The position numbers and the translations under genes were made by a program. From an uncultured Erysipelotrichaceae bacterium (GTDB lineage: Bacteria > Bacillota_I > Bacilli_A > RFN20 > CAG-826), in the NCBI GenBank assembly GCA_902802365.1, contig CADCLZ010000001.1:11393-75392 (forward strand): a DNA stretch of 64,000 nt. The letters are read 5' to 3'. Below are positions 26,300 through 34,982 of the stretch, piece after piece; the first letter of the stretch is position 1; each line of letters begins with the position of its first letter. Under the pieces are notes generated by a model, which was not told the origin of the DNA, ran no database searches, and saw only the letters and a list, made by a program, of their open reading frames with translations.

Positions 26300-27062
26300 T
26301 CCCCCTCAAAATAGCGTCCGGTGGTTCTGCTTTTTCGGGCAGCATAGCCCTCTGCCGCGGGACGGACCAACGCCTGCATCTGTCGTCGGCTATCCGTTGA
26401 ACGGATCTCCGTCAAAGTCGGTCGACAACTGCGCGGCGGCCTGATCTTCTTTGAGCCGATTTCGGATGTGCTTCGCAATCTTCTTCATGTTCCTCCCGAC
26501 CGTTTCCACGTAGTGCCCTCTGCGCCGGAATTCTCGGTTCCGGCGCTTGAGCTTCGCGTTTCCCCGCTTCCGGCAGATCATCAGCGACGACTTTCCCTTC
26601 AGGCATCCCATTATCCCGGAAACCGGGAGTTTGGGCGGGGCCGAAATCAGCGTGTGCCCGTGGTCGGGGCGGACCTCCGCCTCGTGGATGGGATCCCCTT
26701 CCATTCGCAGAGCTTCCTGAGGATCGGGCCGATCTCCAGCCTCTTCAAACCCCTTCCTCCGGCATTTCGGGGTGGAGACGACGTGGCACTTACAGTTCCA
26801 GCACGCATGCGCTGAACTTAGGCTGTCGGATGAATTCGGCATGCGGCTCCTTTCAGATGGCGCGTTGGTCCGCCCCATCGTGATAGGAGCCTTTTTGCGG
26901 ATCAGGCAAAGCTGAAAGCTCAACCGAACTTCCAGACTATTGGGGAGTTTTCGCTTGCTGGATGCTCTGCATCGGCTCAGACAACAAAATCGCCGTCATG
27001 CAAAGACTGGACGCTCTTCTCCCTTTTATACACCTTAGCCGGCGGAAAATATCTTTTTGCTT
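26300..27062 (-). mobile_element. IS200/IS605-family insertion sequence (tnpA only), copy 1
   Basis: GC-rich (about 57%) block beginning right after the cupin stop. Contains tnpA. The left-end 210 bp recur at 30085-30293. Confidence 0.7.
26390..26842 (-). CDS. tnpA: IS200-type HUH (Y1) transposase TnpA
   Basis: From M28: MPNSSDSLSSAHACWNCKCHVVSTPKCRRKGF...DHGHTLIS (HuH)...GKSSLMI...RRGHYVETVGRN (catalytic Tyr). Collinear with IS608 TnpA, about 150 aa. Confidence 0.7.
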   Translation of the reverse strand: MPNSSDSLSSAHACWNCKCHVVSTPKCRRKGFEEAGDRPDPQEALRMEGDPIHEAEVRPDHGHTLISAPPKLPVSGIMGCLKGKSSLMICRKRGNAKLKRRNREFRRRGHYVETVGRNMKKIAKHIRNRLKEDQAAAQLSTDFDGDPFNG

Positions 27063-27160
27063 AACCTCTCACATCGTTGGTATGGGGTAAAATCTGTTTT
27101 ACGCTTCCCAAAACGCGATGAATCAAAGCAAACTTATTCCCTTTCCGCTACAATAAAATC

Positions 27161-28048
27161 ATGCAAGATAAGCCGAAAAACGTGCGTTGCCCAATCTGCC
27201 GAAAATACAAGTATCCGACCGAAGACCATATTCCTCCTCGTTCATGCGGAAACAGTCAAAACACCAAATATCATTTCTTCTTAACCGATTACATCGGAAG
27301 CCAAAACCGTACTGAGTTTATTTCGCAAGGTGGATTAAAAAGACGCTTTCTTTGCTCGGATTGCAACAACAGGCTTTTGGGCGCAGGACCGGACAAAGAA
27401 TTGGGGAGCCTTTGCCAAACGGCCGCGAAAGCGATCAGCGAAAAAGAATCATCTTTAACATGGGAAGGCGATATAAAACAAATCATTGTTGCCGCCTTAG
27501 GGCATATTTTGGGAGCCATGCATTATGACAAGTCGCTTCCCGCCAAAGAAATGAGAGCGTTCATTCATAAAGGCATCGTTCCCGAACAATCAAAGTTATT
27601 TCTATTCCTTTATCCTTTTCACGAAATATTTGTTGTCCGAGATTGCGTTGCCGCTCCATTAAAGCCCAATAAGCAATCGATTTTAACGGAACCAATAGGG
27701 CTATCGGGAATGTATTTTTATCCTCTGGCTTTTATATACACCGAAAAAGAAAACTTAGGGAACGGTTTGGATCTCTTTGAAATTTATCAAGAGGGCGAAA
27801 CCAAGATTACATTAAATATCGATTCTTGGTCCAATCCTATAACAAAAACCGTTCTTCCAGCGGATTGGCCGTTTCATCTTGACAATATCAATGACAACCT
27901 CGATTCGGGGTGCATGACGATGGCGGGCGCAGCTGGAGGCGAAAGCATCTCAACAATTCCTCAATCAAAAGGAGTTCTTATAAAAATACATCATAAGAAC
28001 GGAACGCTGACAAACCCCGCCACAAACGAATTGCTTCGATTCAAATAA
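27161..28048 (+). CDS. HNH-motif nuclease-like N-terminus fused to about 200 aa uncharacterised domain
   Basis: CPICRKYKYPTEDHIPPRSCGN...N...FLCSDCNNRL: CxxC...DH...N...CxxCN beta-beta-alpha-Me pattern. Rest unrecognised. Cargo between the two IS200 copies. Confidence 0.55.
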   Translation: MQDKPKNVRCPICRKYKYPTEDHIPPRSCGNSQNTKYHFFLTDYIGSQNRTEFISQGGLKRRFLCSDCNNRLLGAGPDKELGSLCQTAAKAISEKESSLTWEGDIKQIIVAALGHILGAMHYDKSLPAKEMRAFIHKGIVPEQSKLFLFLYPFHEIFVVRDCVAAPLKPNKQSILTEPIGLSGMYFYPLAFIYTEKENLGNGLDLFEIYQEGETKITLNIDSWSNPITKTVLPADWPFHLDNINDNLDSGCMTMAGAAGGESISTIPQSKGVLIKIHHKNGTLTNPATNELLRFK

Positions 28049-28448
28049 ACATTAAAAAAGGTTTCATATAAGGCGAAAATGTGCCGCAACATCGAAACCG
28101 AGCGCTGCCACCCTCTTGACACCATTTCGTTCAAGAGACAACAATTCTAGCGTGCAAGCGTCTTTTATTACTACGATCGTTCTATTCGAGGCCGCTTCCG
28201 TCATGGAAAAAGCTATAAAGGGCTTTAATGATAGAAACCTTTCTTTGGCGCAGTCACTTCCCTTTTTTCAAATGGGTATTCTATCGTTTTCTCGATTTTA
28301 CCTCCTCGTGAAGCGAATCAGCATGTGGAAGAGCTCTTTCAAAGATGGTGATGAAGAGCCGCTTGGGGTGAGCCATATGATTGTCTGAAAGCCCATTCCG
28401 CTTAAATATTTATGGAATCATCCCTACTCTTTCGTTAGAATGGGGGTC

Positions 28449-29192
28449 ATGAAAAAAGAAGGCCAAACAACAATCGATATTTTATCCGCAAACAAAACAA
28501 CCCTTGAGCTTTTGCACAAGGACCCCAACAACCGCGACCGGAGCTATGAGCACTTCCACCGCGCCTTCATCGAGCAGCTAAATAAGGCGGAGGCCGAAAG
28601 GGATCTCGATTACCTGACCCTCCACCTATTCGCCTATCTGGCCTCCTGGGGGATGCTCAGGGGTTCGACCTTCTCCCTCCAGAAAGACTATCTGTTCCAT
28701 AAACCGATCATTGAGATCCTCCTGGACGAAAAATACAAAAGGCTATTGGACATTTCATGGGAGGATCTCGACGAAGATGCGATTCGTGACATCCTCGACC
28801 TCAAGGCGAGGATCACGGCTTATTATAAGGGAGAGTCCTACATCTCTTCCGTTTACGCCTCCGCCCCGGAGATAAAAAGGATCGCCTGCGTCCATGACGT
28901 CCTCGTCTCCAAAATCCTTTTAGGCTCCTATTCCTGCGTCCTGGCCTACGACACCAATGTGAGGGGAGGGCTAAAAAGCAAAGGCCTTTGCCAAAGCTTC
29001 GGGAAAAGGAGCCTATCTCAGCTAAAGGAATTCGCGGGGGAACACGCCGAAGAGTTGGCGGAAGCGTCAAGACTCATGGAAGCCGAACGGGGCATGAAAT
29101 ATTCGGATATGAAGCTATTGGATTCCTATTTCTTTGCCTTGGGGGCCGCGGAGTATGAGAAAAAGAGGGCCCTTGAATCGCAGTTGGGGTAG
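28449..29192 (+). CDS. Hypothetical protein (GC-rich, no recognisable motifs)
   Basis: 248 aa. TGGGGGTC 2 nt upstream of ATG 28449 (the ORF track starts at 28440). About 54% GC, acidic helical composition. Confidence 0.45.
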   Translation: MKKEGQTTIDILSANKTTLELLHKDPNNRDRSYEHFHRAFIEQLNKAEAERDLDYLTLHLFAYLASWGMLRGSTFSLQKDYLFHKPIIEILLDEKYKRLLDISWEDLDEDAIRDILDLKARITAYYKGESYISSVYASAPEIKRIACVHDVLVSKILLGSYSCVLAYDTNVRGGLKSKGLCQSFGKRSLSQLKEFAGEHAEELAEASRLMEAERGMKYSDMKLLDSYFFALGAAEYEKKRALESQLG

Positions 29193-29221
29193 CCCATCAA
29201 TTTGCCCTAAGAGATTACTTT

Positions 29222-29518
29222 CTAAACCCTCTTGAACAGGTCCCTCGTATAGACTTTATCCTTCACGTCGTCCAGACAGGGATCGTACCGATTCGCGATG
29301 ATCGCGTGGCTGGCTTTCTTGAACTCGGCCAGATCCTTGATGACCTCGCTCCCGAAGAACTCATCTTCCTTCAGGGTCGGCTCATAGACCACCACTTTGG
29401 CCCCTTTGGCTTTTGTTCTCTTCATGACGCCTTGGATCGCGGACGCCCGGAAATTGTCGGAGTTGCTCTTCATGATGAGGCGGTAGATGCCGGCGCCGGC
29501 GATCTTCACATTCTTCAT
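29222..29518 (-). pseudogene. C-terminal fragment of UDP-glucose/GDP-mannose 6-dehydrogenase
   Basis: 98 aa matching the UDPG_MGDP_dh_C end ([10 protein letters not shown]...[24 protein letters not shown]...). N-terminal about 300 aa missing. Confidence 0.6.
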
Positions 29519-29884: not shown

Positions 29885-30293
29885 CATTGGAGCACACCTG
29901 CGCCTCGTGGATGGGATCCCCTTCCACTCGCAGAGCTTACGGGGGTGACCCCTATCCCCGGCCTCTTCAGGCCGTTGAACCACTTCCTCCGGTGCTTCGG
30001 GGCGAAAACGACGTGGTGCTTACAGTCCCACCGGGTTTGGGCTAGACTTAGGTTGTCAGTCTTATCTGGCGTTTGGCTCCTTTCAGATGGCGCGTTGGTC
30101 CGCCCCATCGTGATAGGAGGCTTTTTGCGGAAGCTAAAAGCTCAATCGAGCTCCCAGACGATCGGGGAGTTTTCACTCGCTGGATGCTTTGCGTCGGCTC
30201 AGACAACAAAATCGCCGTCATGCAAAGACCGGACGCTCTTCTCCCTTTATACACCTTAGCCGAAGGAAAATATCTTTTTGCTTAGCCTCTTTG
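29885..30293 (-). mobile_element. Truncated IS200-family remnant, copy 2 (left end plus first about 60 tnpA codons)
   Basis: 30085-30293 matches 26856-27062 closely. 29893-30084 matches the tnpA 5' region of copy 1, with frameshifts (MGRTNAPSERS...WDCKHHVVFAPKHRRK). Same orientation as copy 1. Confidence 0.65.
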
Positions 30294-30387: not shown

Positions 30388-31482
30388 TTATAGCCGCTTC
30401 TTCCTCCAAAAGGGGGCAAATAAAGAAATCGCTTCTTCAATGCTCATTGATGGATTAATTCCATGCGATTCATCAAGAAAAACGCAGTTTATGAATTGGT
30501 CCATATAGAAATTGTGAACTCTCCGCGGGAAATGAGCGATAGGGGTTTCATAGAAGCTCTTAAATGTTTCAAAATGATCTAAAGACCCGAACCGTGACCA
30601 CGCTCGATATAATTCTTCTTCAGGTTTGATATCCACCACATATATTTGCTTCATGTGAGGTTCCCTTCGCTCCCAGGCCTTTTTAATTAGTTCGATTGCC
30701 AAGGCGTCGCTTTCAGGAGCGCTATAACCAATGAAAGTCAGCACCGAGGCGCTGTTTAAAAACGAATCAAGCGACTCCCACGACTTTTTTATGGCCGGGT
30801 CTTGATCATATCTTTTGTTTTTAACAGGGAAGAGAAGCTTTGATTTCCTGTAAGTTTCGCGCAAATCCGACCGGCAATCGGGATTTAAGCCAATCTTGGT
30901 TCCTTCCAATTTAACAATTTCCGCGACGTTCCCATGGAGAAAAAGCAGCATAGGAAGGCGTTCCCAACCAATCAGCTTTTCAATTCTACAATAAGCTTGA
31001 ACAATTAAAGGATCCCAGTTGAAGGTCGCAATTGCGTCGTTGTGATTCAACGACAAAATCAAATGATCGTACATCGTCGCGTGGTCGGGGATTCTGAATT
31101 GGGAATAAAAGTTATAAATTGCGTTATTCACCTCATCAAGAGCCTCTGAAAACTTGGTGTTTTCCTTTTGCCTGTCATATAACTCTGAGTAGATGGTTTC
31201 TAGATTGTCAGAATCGACTCTCAAACCCAATGAACGAATGTAGTCAGTTAGCCCCAATACATCCAAGAATCCAGCCATGCAGGATGATTTGTGACCAGTT
31301 TTGTCTCCATTCGGAATTGCTGCCATCGTGGCTCCTGCGCCTAAGACAACAATATTGGGACGAATGCGCCGGTTAAAAGGAACGGTCATGTTCCAAGAAT
31401 TATAAATGGAATAACCCGGGTTCTTGGGATCCATCATCTCCTTCAACCCTTTGATATATTGCAGGTACTCTTTTCCGTCCAT
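30388..31482 (-). CDS. SIR2-like (SIR2_2 / DUF4917-type) protein; putative NAD+-consuming effector
   Basis: IVVLGAGATMAAIPNG (GAG Rossmann-like NAD motif). LFLHGN (HG motif). TFIGYSAPESDALAI (hGYS..D motif of SIR2_2). GAGGAG RBS 6 nt upstream. Last gene of the four-gene operon. Confidence 0.5.
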   Translation of the reverse strand: MDGKEYLQYIKGLKEMMDPKNPGYSIYNSWNMTVPFNRRIRPNIVVLGAGATMAAIPNGDKTGHKSSCMAGFLDVLGLTDYIRSLGLRVDSDNLETIYSELYDRQKENTKFSEALDEVNNAIYNFYSQFRIPDHATMYDHLILSLNHNDAIATFNWDPLIVQAYCRIEKLIGWERLPMLLFLHGNVAEIVKLEGTKIGLNPDCRSDLRETYRKSKLLFPVKNKRYDQDPAIKKSWESLDSFLNSASVLTFIGYSAPESDALAIELIKKAWERREPHMKQIYVVDIKPEEELYRAWSRFGSLDHFETFKSFYETPIAHFPRRVHNFYMDQFINCVFLDESHGINPSMSIEEAISLFAPFWRKKRL

Positions 31483-31554
31483 AACTGCTCCTCTCTATAT
31501 TGATCAGTTTCCGAATAGACCGCTATGAAATGCAAAGGAACGGAAACCAGACCA

Positions 31555-33069
31555 TCACGAATGATCGTTTCTGCCTTTAAGGTGATTGACTAGCGACAAA
31601 ACGTCACGAAGCAAACGTTCGTCCGTGATGAAAAGCATAATCTTTGTACGCGCTCGGGTGAGACCTTGATACAAAAGCTTGTCAAAGATGTAATCATGGC
31701 TTGGGTGTTCAACCGATCTTAAAACCCCATTCTCATAGCAAAAATGGTTGTCCATTATCATGCACACGCCATCAAATTCTTGTCCTATAACCGAATGGGT
31801 ATTCAATCTCCCTTTTTGATAATCTAGCGAAGAATCATAGAAAGATGCTGTATAGGAGATGTAGGTAAAGCCAAGAGGCTCAGCTGCTTTTGCCCTCTTA
31901 ACCGCTTCTTGGGCGTCTGGTTCGAAATAAATCTGAACATTTGGGAATGAAAACGAAGGCTTGAAATGGTGTTTATTCCGCAAACACGAAATAAACAAAT
32001 CAATCTCTTCGTTTGTACGGATGCATTTTCTCAAGTTCGCGTGGTATTGACCACACAAATCTTCAATCCGATCAACGGTGTTTCTTTTCTCTTCCGAATG
32101 AGACAACTTCTGCCCCGAATCGTAAGAAAAGACGCAAATGGCTTTGGTTTTCTTAACCCATCGCTCGATTTTATCAAGGTGGGATTCGTAGAGGCGATGA
32201 GATTCATCAACCATGATGACTTCCGCTGACCTAATTTCTCGGTATCCCAATGCCTTTGCGGGAACAACAAGAAGGTTTTCGGACATTGTATTTAAGCTGT
32301 TGTGTCCTTCGCAAAGGAGCCCGGAGTGAACGATCATCACTTTTATCCCTTGATTCGCTAGATCTTTGGCAATGTCGTAGAGCAACAGCGTCTTTCCAGT
32401 GCCAGGGCCGCCCGTGAGACGAAAAAACTTATCCGCTGGACCAGAAAGTGCGTAAGAAAGAATTTCGCTTTTGATGTTTTCTTGGTGTTCGGTCAAGAAA
32501 TATTTTCCTTCCCAAAAGTCTTTGGGCGCATTCAAAGGCGAAATCAAAACGTTGAATGGTGAAAGAACGGCATCCGAGTCGGTGGCGCAGGGAACAAAGT
32601 CGGCAAGTTTAATGATTTCGGTGCCGAAAGCCCCTTCCTCCAAGTTGTCACCAACCAACTTAAAAAACCGACGATTTGACGAAACGAAACAATACGAGCA
32701 AACGTTCTTCCCCAAAATCTTTAAGTAATGCCGATTTTCAGTCAATTGCTTTTTTATCTGTTGATCCGGAACCATCATGCTTTTTAACTCAATATTTAAA
32801 ATCGTTTCATCGGTGATTTTCAGCAGATCAAATTCTTTGCCTAAATTGGGGATGACGTATCCCATGATAAAGCCGGACGCGGAACGTTCGGACCAACCCC
32901 CTTCTTTCAAAAGGGCTTTGACATCGAGGATTTCATTATGCCGATAACTTCCTTTTCCACCCGTTAGATAAGGAATGTACTCTTCGCTTAGTTCCTTGTT
33001 ATCGGCAAGTTTTATGAGATCGAATAATGAAACCAATTTATTGTTCATCTGCTCGTCTCGCTTTCTCAT
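31555..33069 (-). CDS. DUF2075-type SF1-helicase-like P-loop NTPase with N-terminal PD-(D/E)xK (NERD-like) nuclease motif
   Basis: N-terminus: EFDLLKITDETILNIELK (D...ExK). Walker [14 protein letters not shown]. Walker B VIMVDESHRL. Motif VI-like YQGLTRARTKIMLF. Start 33069 or 33048. Either one overlaps the upstream RloB-like stop (33038). Confidence 0.6.
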   Translation of the reverse strand: MRKRDEQMNNKLVSLFDLIKLADNKELSEEYIPYLTGGKGSYRHNEILDVKALLKEGGWSERSASGFIMGYVIPNLGKEFDLLKITDETILNIELKSMMVPDQQIKKQLTENRHYLKILGKNVCSYCFVSSNRRFFKLVGDNLEEGAFGTEIIKLADFVPCATDSDAVLSPFNVLISPLNAPKDFWEGKYFLTEHQENIKSEILSYALSGPADKFFRLTGGPGTGKTLLLYDIAKDLANQGIKVMIVHSGLLCEGHNSLNTMSENLLVVPAKALGYREIRSAEVIMVDESHRLYESHLDKIERWVKKTKAICVFSYDSGQKLSHSEEKRNTVDRIEDLCGQYHANLRKCIRTNEEIDLFISCLRNKHHFKPSFSFPNVQIYFEPDAQEAVKRAKAAEPLGFTYISYTASFYDSSLDYQKGRLNTHSVIGQEFDGVCMIMDNHFCYENGVLRSVEHPSHDYIFDKLLYQGLTRARTKIMLFITDERLLRDVLSLVNHLKGRNDHS

Positions 33070-33634
33070 TTTTCATCGACGCGACCGCTTTATCCATCGT
33101 CAAAGCAAAATTCGCACGATTATATCCTTCTAGACACGCTTCAGTGGAATAACTCAATTTGCCCTTAATCCGTTCATTCTTCAGATAGGCTTTCTTCGTG
33201 TTTTTAAAGTACATCGCGCGGTCAACTTTGTTTGCTTCTGGGTGTGAAACCTCTAACACCTGCTCAATGTTTTTGGAGAAGGCCATCGGCAAAAAGCCAT
33301 TCTTTTTGCACCACCGAATGAGCGCCTCGTTCTTTGCCTTCTCCGCTTTGCCTTTTGAATCGACGTCAAAGCAAATGATCGGAACGATCTCAAATAACTC
33401 CTTGGGATAGAACTGCCTCTTGGCCCGTTCGATTGCTTTGGTGGTGCTGGAAGAGATAATGTTCCCTTTGCCTGCGACATGAAGGAAGACGCGCTTTGCC
33501 GGATAACCAGATGCTCCGCCATATTGGAAATAAAGCCCATAATATGCATCGATCAGCGCGCTTAAATAAACGTTGTCGGTTTTAGCAAGCGAGGTCGTCT
33601 CGCACACGATGATCAAAGCGAGGGCTTTATTCAT
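33038..33634 (-). CDS. RloB/AbiLii-like protein (TOPRIM-like)
   Basis: Start set at M52 of the track ORF (ATG 33634), which overlaps the ATPase stop as GATGAATAA. ALIIVCETTS...NVYL (IVCEGxxTE-like). PIICFDVD (VFDRD-like). MAFSKNIEQVLEVSHPE (SNpcFElWllLH-like). Confidence 0.55.
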   Translation of the reverse strand: MNKALALIIVCETTSLAKTDNVYLSALIDAYYGLYFQYGGASGYPAKRVFLHVAGKGNIISSSTTKAIERAKRQFYPKELFEIVPIICFDVDSKGKAEKAKNEALIRWCKKNGFLPMAFSKNIEQVLEVSHPEANKVDRAMYFKNTKKAYLKNERIKGKLSYSTEACLEGYNRANFALTMDKAVASMKNEKARRADEQ

Positions 33635-34982
33635 CCTTTTGCTCGTCTCCAAAGATCTCCGCGAATTGATATTCGCTGATATTAAATGGAATTCCCAAAA
33701 TGAATCCACCCAAATAAGGCCCTTTGGGATTCTTTCTGGCGCCCCTGCTCCAGGGCACAATGCCGTTTCCTTCCGTAAGGAAATCAATAGAGTTTCCGGT
33801 TTTATTCAGTGGATCCATGATTTCGACGTTATGGGTGGTCATGACAATTTGGGCATCGCTTGAGAAGAGGAAATACTCAATCAGGACCGTGATATAAACA
33901 TCGTGGATATCGGAATCGATTTCATCAATGAAGACGATAGATCCCCGCGCGGCGGCCAAAAAGGCGTAGAAAAGCCTGGTGAGCTTTTTAATGCCTGTCG
34001 ACTCGAATTCATAATCCACTCTGAAGCCGCTTTGATAGCCATAAGTTAAATTGACGACAAGCGTGTCAACATCTTCTTTATAAGAGGGCTCAACCCGGAT
34101 GAGGCCCGGCTTCATAATTTTCAAAAAAGCAGCCAATTTTCCCAAAGAAGATTCAAAGGTCTTCTTTTCGGTTTTTTCGATAATGTCGAAGCAATCCCTA
34201 TGAAAGCTCTTTGTCATACCCTTTCTTTGCCGGTTGGTCATCCATCTTTGCAAGATTCCCAATCGTTGCTGCTCGTTTTTCTTATTTCGATCCATGAGCA
34301 GCTCCATCATTTTCTGAACGGCGAAGGATTCGTGGCTATCAGAGGTTTCACCGAAGAAGACAGAGATATTGGACGCACACAAAAATGCCTGAGCCAAAGT
34401 CATCAAGGAAGGAACGGGATCCTTCTCAATCGCCTTTTTGGCAAAAAGGTCCATCAGTAAAGAACCAGACAAAGTGTGTTTTGTAAAATCAACTTTGCTT
34501 TGATTCGCAAAGGATACAAAATCCGGCTTCCCGATGAATTCACCATTCCTCTGCCCGGCCAAGATATCGGACTCTTCCTTTTTGCTCAAACCGAAAATTT
34601 CCTCTTCGAAAATCCTTAAAGACCCGAATTCGTCGTACCCGATTTTCAGGGAATGGCTGAGGAATTTGTCTGGTTCGTCAGATTTACGACGAATCCGATA
34701 GGTCATCTGAATCGAGAGGCTCTTTCGGTTTTTGTTGATGAGCCTCGTTAAAATCGAGACGGTGGGCGAATCGTCCAAACTCGTTTCGTTTTTGGCGAGG
34801 CGGGCGTAGAAATCCGCTGCCAAAACAATTCCCGTTTTACCCACGCCATTGGCGCCATAAATCGCTTTGATCAATCCTTTGGTTTCTTTTTTCGTTGATC
34901 TGGGGTTGTCAAACTTAAGAGTGATATCCTCTTTGATGCTTTTGATTCCGCCGACGGACATGGACAATAATGTGATTCTCAT
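33627..34982 (-). CDS. ABC/OLD-family (AAA_15/AAA_21-type) ATPase lacking a TOPRIM domain; AbiLi/RloA-like
   Basis: N-terminus: MRITLLSMSVGGIKSIKE...AIYGANGVGKTGIV (Walker A). C-terminus: SIVFIDEIDSDIHD (Walker B/D-loop) and VMTTHN (H-loop). First gene of the operon. Confidence 0.7.
   Translation of the reverse strand: MRITLLSMSVGGIKSIKEDITLKFDNPRSTKKETKGLIKAIYGANGVGKTGIVLAADFYARLAKNETSLDDSPTVSILTRLINKNRKSLSIQMTYRIRRKSDEPDKFLSHSLKIGYDEFGSLRIFEEEIFGLSKKEESDILAGQRNGEFIGKPDFVSFANQSKVDFTKHTLSGSLLMDLFAKKAIEKDPVPSLMTLAQAFLCASNISVFFGETSDSHESFAVQKMMELLMDRNKKNEQQRLGILQRWMTNRQRKGMTKSFHRDCFDIIEKTEKKTFESSLGKLAAFLKIMKPGLIRVEPSYKEDVDTLVVNLTYGYQSGFRVDYEFESTGIKKLTRLFYAFLAAARGSIVFIDEIDSDIHDVYITVLIEYFLFSSDAQIVMTTHNVEIMDPLNKTGNSIDFLTEGNGIVPWSRGARKNPKGPYLGGFILGIPFNISEYQFAEIFGDEQKDE

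Follow-up and report, generated by a model that had tools for sequence, protein, structure and literature searches.

Within a 64,000-nucleotide stretch of contig CADCLZ010000001.1 from an uncultured Erysipelotrichaceae bacterium (the window, whose numbering is used throughout), a minus-strand gene at 30388..31482 encodes a protein of 364 amino acids from an ATG start. Judging from its sequence and predicted structure, this protein is a divergent, stand-alone enzyme of the SIR2 superfamily, and it represents an unannotated family of stand-alone genes. Depletion of nicotinamide adenine dinucleotide (NAD+) by SIR2 domains is a well-known anti-phage strategy, and the explanation we favor, with moderate confidence, is that the gene specifies a single-gene anti-phage protein that would consume NAD+ when triggered and that lies beside two independent defense systems. 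The annotation of the window is corrected in this respect: three independent defense modules stand side by side there, not one four-gene system.

Fold and predicted active site

A reading of the DNA made earlier from the sequence alone (hereafter the sequence-only reading) had proposed this open reading frame (ORF) and a strong ribosome-binding site in front of it, and both stand: the frame lies on the minus strand with an ATG start, and the Shine-Dalgarno sequence GAGGAG can be read directly at 31488..31493 on the same strand, 5 nucleotides upstream of the ATG. The identical protein is carried by four independent metagenome assemblies, with the same gene context in all of them, and its closest relative in a protein collection clustered at 90% identity is 45% identical.

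To characterize the fold we used two structure models, an AlphaFold2 model of the protein itself built on 36 homologues (predicted local distance difference test, pLDDT, 78.9; predicted template modelling score, pTM, 0.80) and a model of a typical family member, P0049 (pLDDT 94.7, pTM 0.93). When the first model was compared with the PDB using Foldseek, SIR2 proteins filled the top 37 hits, and the best match was the SIR2 subunit of a SIR2-HerA system (8wld, E 2.7e-9). Structural-match values were 15.5 for PsSIR2 (8w9l), 15.3 for 8yhx_G, 13.4 for KomC, 12.8 for SeThsA and 12.4 for Af1; the lowest SIR2 hit reached 8.8, and the next protein, which is not a SIR2 protein, at most 7.9. The P0049 model gave an identical ranking. 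In both models the core sheet has six strands, and the SIR2 domain of our protein contains a helical insert of about 90 residues. The prediction thus recovers a Rossmann-type SIR2 fold, as the sequence-only reading had anticipated, and in the comparison with ThsA that it suggested SeThsA is placed among the SIR2 matches, below PsSIR2.

The translation contains all three motifs recognized earlier, namely a GAG-type motif, LFLHGN (residues 180-185) and FIGYSAPESD (residues 250-259), together with a fourth that had not been listed, FNWD (residues 154-157). We placed these motifs relative to canonical sirtuins by aligning the family with a reference alignment of Sir2Tm (checked to be 100% identical to 1yc5), Af1, Af2 and Escherichia coli CobB. 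With hhalign, the family alignment of 136 diverse members matched the four sirtuins at a probability of 78.6% (E 1.7e-5, 170 columns) and a second family alignment matched them at E 2e-5, while reversed and column-shuffled controls gave E 0.07-0.87 at probabilities of no more than 0.8%; the signal appears only with the four-sirtuin alignment, comparison with the CobB sequence alone being uninformative. In this alignment the dinucleotide-binding loop after strand 1, G48-A-G-A-T52 (31327..31341, minus strand, as are all features of the gene), corresponds to the sirtuin GAGIS motif, with G48-A-G50 paired to G21-A-G23 of Sir2Tm. F154-N155-W-D157 (31012..31023) corresponds to the QNID motif with its catalytic Asn and Asp, N155 pairing with N99 and D157 with D101; the catalytic His motif L182-H183-G184-N185 (30928..30939) maps through H183-G184 to H116-G117; and G252-Y-S254-A-P-E-S-D259 (30706..30729), in the loop after strand 4, corresponds to the sirtuin G-S/T-S motif, with G252 paired to G188 and S254 to S190. 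The GAGxS loop, the Asn and Asp, and the His-Gly pair therefore lie in register with sirtuins, as expected of a member of the SIR2 superfamily.

These positions are also the most constrained in the family. All 136 diverse homologues have H183 and G184; 135 have N155, as many have D157, and 134 each have G252 and D259. G48, A49, G50 and A51 are each present in at least 130 members (G48 and G50 in at least 134), and at position 52 there are 120 members with Ser and 15 with Thr. A further, family-specific motif near the C-terminus, P319-R-R321 (30520..30528), is nearly invariant (P in 125, R in 131 and R in 127 of the 136), in a region where the structure model is of low confidence. Of their counterparts in Sir2Tm, H116 serves as catalytic base, whereas the nicotinamide-ribose pocket is lined by N99 and D101. 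As every catalytic and near-invariant family residue is retained, the protein looks, from its sequence, catalytically competent.

Relation to known SIR2 families

None of the annotation libraries that we searched recognizes the protein: it matched no model of Pfam, PADLOC or NCBIfam at E<=1. The sequence-only reading had assigned it to the SIR2_2/DUF4917 type; the SIR2-like fold is borne out by the structure model, but the family membership is not, as PF13289, PF16263 and likewise PF02146 gave no match at E<=10 to the protein, to the family members of two sets (A1, 36; A2, 136) taken singly, or to two family consensus sequences, and the motifs could not be aligned to the SIR2_2 profile at HMMER level. 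The two consensus sequences matched no SIR2-type family in Pfam. Among the weak Pfam matches, AbiH is the sole globular family to recur, in four of the 136 members (best 6.8e-5); in PADLOC, three of the 136 weakly matched Aga_SIR2, and each of two SIR2 models drew a weak match from one member. The protein itself and the consensus sequences were matched neither by PF14253, at E<=10, nor by the PADLOC AbiH model, so that the weak AbiH matches suggest, at the sequence level, kinship and not membership. Searches of PDB chains with the protein sequence returned nothing relevant, and searches of PDB sequences with the family profiles returned only Sir2Tm, at E 0.23.

The family that escapes these libraries is large. 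The collection clustered at 90% identity contains 1,706 proteins that reach E<=1e-3. Of clusters at 50% identity, 1,492 pass the same threshold and 438 pass E<=1e-30, and a collection of one genome per species holds at least 575 family loci. Members occur in Bacillota, Bacteroidia, Akkermansiaceae, Proteobacteria, Campylobacterales, Planctomycetes and others, including plasmid-borne copies in Stenotrophomonas, Vibrio, Pseudoalteromonas and Legionella that are annotated as hypothetical; no member was detected in 50,697 phage genomes. The family is new to annotation, missed by Pfam, NCBIfam and PADLOC in at least 575 species, and censuses of defense systems built on these libraries probably overlook it. 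Seven members (P0114, P0121, P0028, P0031, P0060, P0061 and P0097) are longer, at 440-450 amino acids, because their N-terminus carries some 100 additional residues that are conserved and include Cys; P0114 alone was found on 139 contigs in gut metagenomes.

Comparison with known systems places the protein near several immune SIR2 proteins but outside SIR2-HerA, Thoeris and DSR1/DSR2. In structure it comes closest to the SIR2 proteins of SIR2-HerA/Nezha (8w9l, 8wld, 8yhx, 8j4u), although sequence identity to these is just 12-19%. Those systems have a HerA ATPase partner; we sought a HerA-like partner among the neighbors of our gene and in 80 loci carrying its relatives and rejected this candidate, as no such gene lies at the locus, no ATPase neighbor is conserved across the 80 loci, and the adjacent gene encodes a superfamily 1 (SF1) helicase of the Nhi/AbiO type. 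The PADLOC SIR2 models, moreover, do not match our protein, and the zinc-site cysteines described below are a feature of its family. ThsA of Thoeris combines its SIR2 domain with a SLOG domain and a ThsB/TIR partner, whereas the 364 residues here are wholly SIR2 fold, and the PADLOC ThsA and ThsB models matched neither this protein nor five other ORFs of the window that were scanned. DSR1 and DSR2 are proteins of about 1,000 amino acids with a large C-terminal sensor, in contrast to a bare SIR2 domain of 364 amino acids, which the PADLOC DSR models likewise left unmatched.

Two small single-gene systems also invite comparison. AbiH proteins are about 340-350 amino acids long. AbiH (PF14253) is a single-gene lactococcal abortive-infection protein, predicted to be sirtuin-like, whose mechanism is unknown (PMC13064643); our protein resembles it in size, in being encoded by a single gene and in its predicted SIR2-like nature, but differs in that neither it nor the family consensus matches PF14253. 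The second is ‘sole-Sir2’, a small stand-alone protein of about 440 amino acids that converts NAD+ to ADP-ribose in vitro and of which a homologue gives E. coli protection against T2 and T4; in these CRISPR-supervised immune systems (CRISIS) its gene stands between cas3 and cas5c and precedes a solitary repeat unit (bioRxiv 10.1101/2024.12.27.630466). Comparable to it in our family are the variants of 440-450 residues, N-terminally extended by about 100, and the members embedded in type I-C cas operons. The present protein, however, has 364 residues and is encoded away from cas genes, and the cas-embedded family members lie between cas7/cas4 and cas1. On the strength of the long variants and the cas-embedded members the two families may be the same, the comparison being one of descriptions only.

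Canonical sirtuins (Sir2Tm, Af1/Af2, CobB; PF02146) differ as well: no family member matches PF02146, the catalytic Asn and His are 17 residues apart in them versus 28 in our protein, and the helical insert is larger in the latter. The family further differs from them in an extra C-terminal region with the PRR motif and in its mobile, defense-rich context, and our protein in the absence of the zinc ligands.

Genomic context and likely role

Neighbor clustering over the 80 loci revealed no conserved partner family. The commonest neighbor is a large serine recombinase (19 of 80 loci), and the 123 immediate neighbors include matches to AbiJ, HEPN, AAA_21/AbiLi, Cas1, Mrr, resolvase and integrase families as well as a rumA-like methyltransferase. 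Relatives are found downstream of BREX pglZ-brxL, beside integrases and Tn7-like genes, beside GmrSD, HNH and serine recombinase genes, or in an integrase/DnaB-type element. In a metagenome-assembled genome (MAG) of Neisseria sp. (L071, 6956-8005) and in Eikenella halliae (L077, 6956-8011) the family gene lies inside a type I-C cas operon, in the order cas5c-cas8c-cas7-(cas4)-SIR2-cas1; a solitary CRISPR repeat was looked for next to these two genes and was not found. In the window, GC content stands at about 0.43 within the island and at 0.49-0.56 in the right flank, a difference that points to horizontal acquisition.

Taken together, the SIR2 fold, the sirtuin NAD+-site residues and the defense-gene neighborhood make an NAD+-consuming defense role the best reading of this gene. 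The protein would lie idle until infection, when a phage cue would trigger it, probably by binding or oligomerization through the helical insert or the family-specific C-terminal region. Once activated it would cleave NAD+ using N155, D157 and H183, and the infected cell would then no longer support phage growth. The setting would be a horizontally acquired defense island in which AbiL-like and Nhi/AbiO-like systems, independent of it, are its neighbors. If confirmed as a defense system, it would be a minimal, sensor-less one in which the off/on control of a bare SIR2 domain could be studied, and the line that has been proposed between sirtuins and immune SIR2 proteins would be refined.

That line is drawn partly on the zinc site: according to Bonhomme et al. 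(bioRxiv 10.1101/2024.09.18.613514), immune SIR2 proteins (‘sirims’) systematically lack it, and the number of their strands is usually seven or higher. In our family, by contrast, 119 of the 136 members (88%) carry three to five cysteines after the catalytic His, in columns that coincide in the hhalign alignment with C124, C148 and C151 of Sir2Tm, and in the Sir2Tm match recovered with the family profile, LHGNV...C falls on this stretch of Sir2Tm too. With these cysteines and a six-stranded sheet, the family fits poorly into the sirtuin/sirim division. No more than two cysteines are present there in the protein studied here and in 16 further members of the sample. In the beta-hairpin insert that occupies the position of the sirtuin zinc module (residues 186-215, 30838..30927), our protein has none in the ligand columns and a single cysteine out of register, so that, judged by sequence columns, it does not possess the sirtuin zinc-binding cluster; its model is weakest here, with pLDDT 56-64.

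Several points weigh against an NAD+-consuming defense role. First, the zinc-site cysteines and six-stranded sheet of the family are traits that Bonhomme et al. tie to non-immune, protein-modifying sirtuins. Second, no defense-database model matches the protein, and it has no recognizable sensor domain. Third, the enrichment of its neighborhood in defense genes consists of raw counts, without comparison to a genomic background. Fourth, this copy is atypical, with a 25-residue N-terminal insertion, a shorter C-terminus and no zinc ligands. Lastly, its NAD+ cleavage, defense role, trigger and oligomerization are properties that we infer.

The main rival explanation takes up the first of these points and regards the protein as a protein- or nucleic-acid-modifying sirtuin, either a deacylase or a SirTM-like ADP-ribosyltransferase, that would use NAD+ stoichiometrically and might still serve in defense. 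It draws on the alignment to canonical sirtuins (E 1.7e-5), which extends over the catalytic His and the cysteines of the zinc site, on Sir2Tm being the best sequence match in the PDB, on the three to five cysteines retained in 119 of 136 members, and on a core sheet of six strands, as described for sirtuins rather than for immune SIR2 proteins. The top structural matches, however, are immune SIR2 proteins of the NADase type, the weak sequence matches that recur are to AbiH, Aga_SIR2 and the PADLOC SIR2 models and never to the Pfam SIR2 family, and our protein together with 11% of the sampled members lacks the zinc ligands yet keeps the catalytic residues. SirTM-type enzymes are usually paired with a macrodomain, and none of the neighbors was seen to encode one; the context, moreover, is mobile and rich in defense genes. 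We consider a modifying sirtuin unlikely.

A more tentative proposal concerns the family as a whole, which would form a widespread, unnamed class of stand-alone immune sirtuins that keep the ancestral zinc module and reside on mobile elements and defense islands, including cas operons. We regard this as possible but rather doubtful. If true, such a class would contradict the rule that sirims always lack the zinc site and would provide an evolutionary bridge from housekeeping sirtuins to NAD+-depleting defense enzymes, with zinc-less copies such as the one in the window as a derived state.

The other alternatives concern the place of the gene in its island, where it is the last of four co-directional genes that run from 34982 down to 30388. 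The first encodes an AbiLi-like AAA_21 ATPase (33627..34982, minus strand; PADLOC AbiLi 3e-30, Pfam AAA_21 6.4e-13) and the second a small partner protein of 198-249 amino acids, depending on the choice of start (33038..33634, or to 33787, minus strand), that matches no family. The third, directly upstream of the SIR2 gene, encodes the SF1 helicase-nuclease of the Nhi/AbiO type (31555..33069, minus strand; 504 amino acids, or 497 from an alternative start), which matches the PADLOC AbiO (1.6e-127, model positions 4-467 of 468) and Nhi (1.2e-121, 3-469 of 470) models over their full length and the Pfam family SLFN-g3_helicase; a match to HerA_C (E 0.32) is not significant. The stops and starts of these three genes overlap, as if translationally coupled, and the SIR2 gene begins 72 nucleotides past the preceding stop (gap 31483-31554). 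As the order is on one strand and a consensus scan predicted neither a promoter nor a terminator in the gap, co-transcription is plausible, and the SIR2 gene may be transcribed with the genes upstream. The sequence-only reading had described it as the last gene of an operon and, by that position, as its effector. The first description holds as regards gene order, with co-transcription a plausible addition, while the second fares poorly.

In its full form, this idea is a four-gene system of AbiLi-like ATPase, small partner, Nhi-like protein and SIR2 protein in which the last would be the effector switched on by upstream sensors, as it is by HerA. The shared strand, the overlaps, the gap free of predicted signals and the structural proximity to the ATPase-dependent SIR2 subunits of SIR2-HerA speak for it. 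Across the 80 related loci, however, homologues of the Nhi-like protein, of the small partner and of the two ORFs downstream of our gene are found in none, and an AbiLi homologue in just two; nor is any neighbor conserved. From both loci that hold the closest Nhi relatives we found (47% identity), the AbiL genes and the SIR2 gene are missing, and a linkage between the Nhi and SIR2 genes was thus rejected in both directions. AbiL-like and Nhi/AbiO-like systems are described as self-sufficient, the latter as a single gene whose models the neighboring protein matches at full length, and the SIR2 gene has its own strong ribosome-binding site. Since Nhi homologues are absent from the related loci, SIR2 genes are absent from the two Nhi loci and the upstream systems are autonomous, an operon effector is unsupported, and we judge it very improbable. 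Least probable of all is a decaying or inactive copy that has lost its zinc site beside insertion-sequence remnants: the 45% identity to the best relative, the missing zinc ligands, the N-terminal insertion and truncated C-terminal tail, the degenerate IS200-type copy ending about 100 nucleotides downstream and a pLDDT of 78.9 against 94.7 for P0049 would fit it, but the frame, preceded by a strong ribosome-binding site, is intact and full-length, no catalytic or near-invariant residue is missing, the identical protein occurs in four independent assemblies, and the cysteines are lost in 15 other sampled members too, which marks their loss as a recurrent, viable state.

Associated elements and other features of the island

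Two associations recur in particular lineages of the family. In 13 loci, restricted to streptococci and one Granulicatella MAG, the family gene is directly followed by a gene for a 495-residue protein with TPR and LA2681-type HEPN domains (Pfam 4.8e-53, no PADLOC match; for example L073, 8007-9494), and the pair may represent a lineage-specific two-gene defense module. In nine loci of Clostridia/Lachnospiraceae (L019, L022, L028, L040, L041, L044, L047, L052 and L054; about 5.1-6.7 kb in most) the family gene adjoins a rumA-like TRAM/U5-methyltransferase gene, and large serine recombinases lie near several. The rumA gene is an integration site for conjugative elements, and its adjacency together with the serine recombinases suggests that the family gene travels there as cargo of rumA-targeting integrative elements.

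In the window itself, a direct repeat of about 400 nucleotides (26666-27069 and 29889-30290, 81-92% identity) represents two copies of an insertion sequence of the IS200/IS605 type. The first contains an intact-looking Y1 transposase ORF (26390..26923, minus strand; Pfam 4.5e-16), and the second is the degenerate copy downstream of the SIR2 gene. A search of the whole window (1-64000) against Rfam at gathering thresholds returned nothing, so the surroundings of the island have no annotated RNA element. Between the two copies (27161-29518) lie three ORFs, of which one of 295 amino acids has a weak HNH_5 match, one of 250 amino acids matches no library, and the third encodes a 98-residue C-terminal fragment of a UDP-glucose/GDP-mannose dehydrogenase (29222..29518, minus strand; PF03720 4.7e-11). 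Genes resembling rfb are found at 21.8-26.3 kb of the window, and the dehydrogenase fragment suggests that the island disrupted a gene cluster for polysaccharide synthesis.

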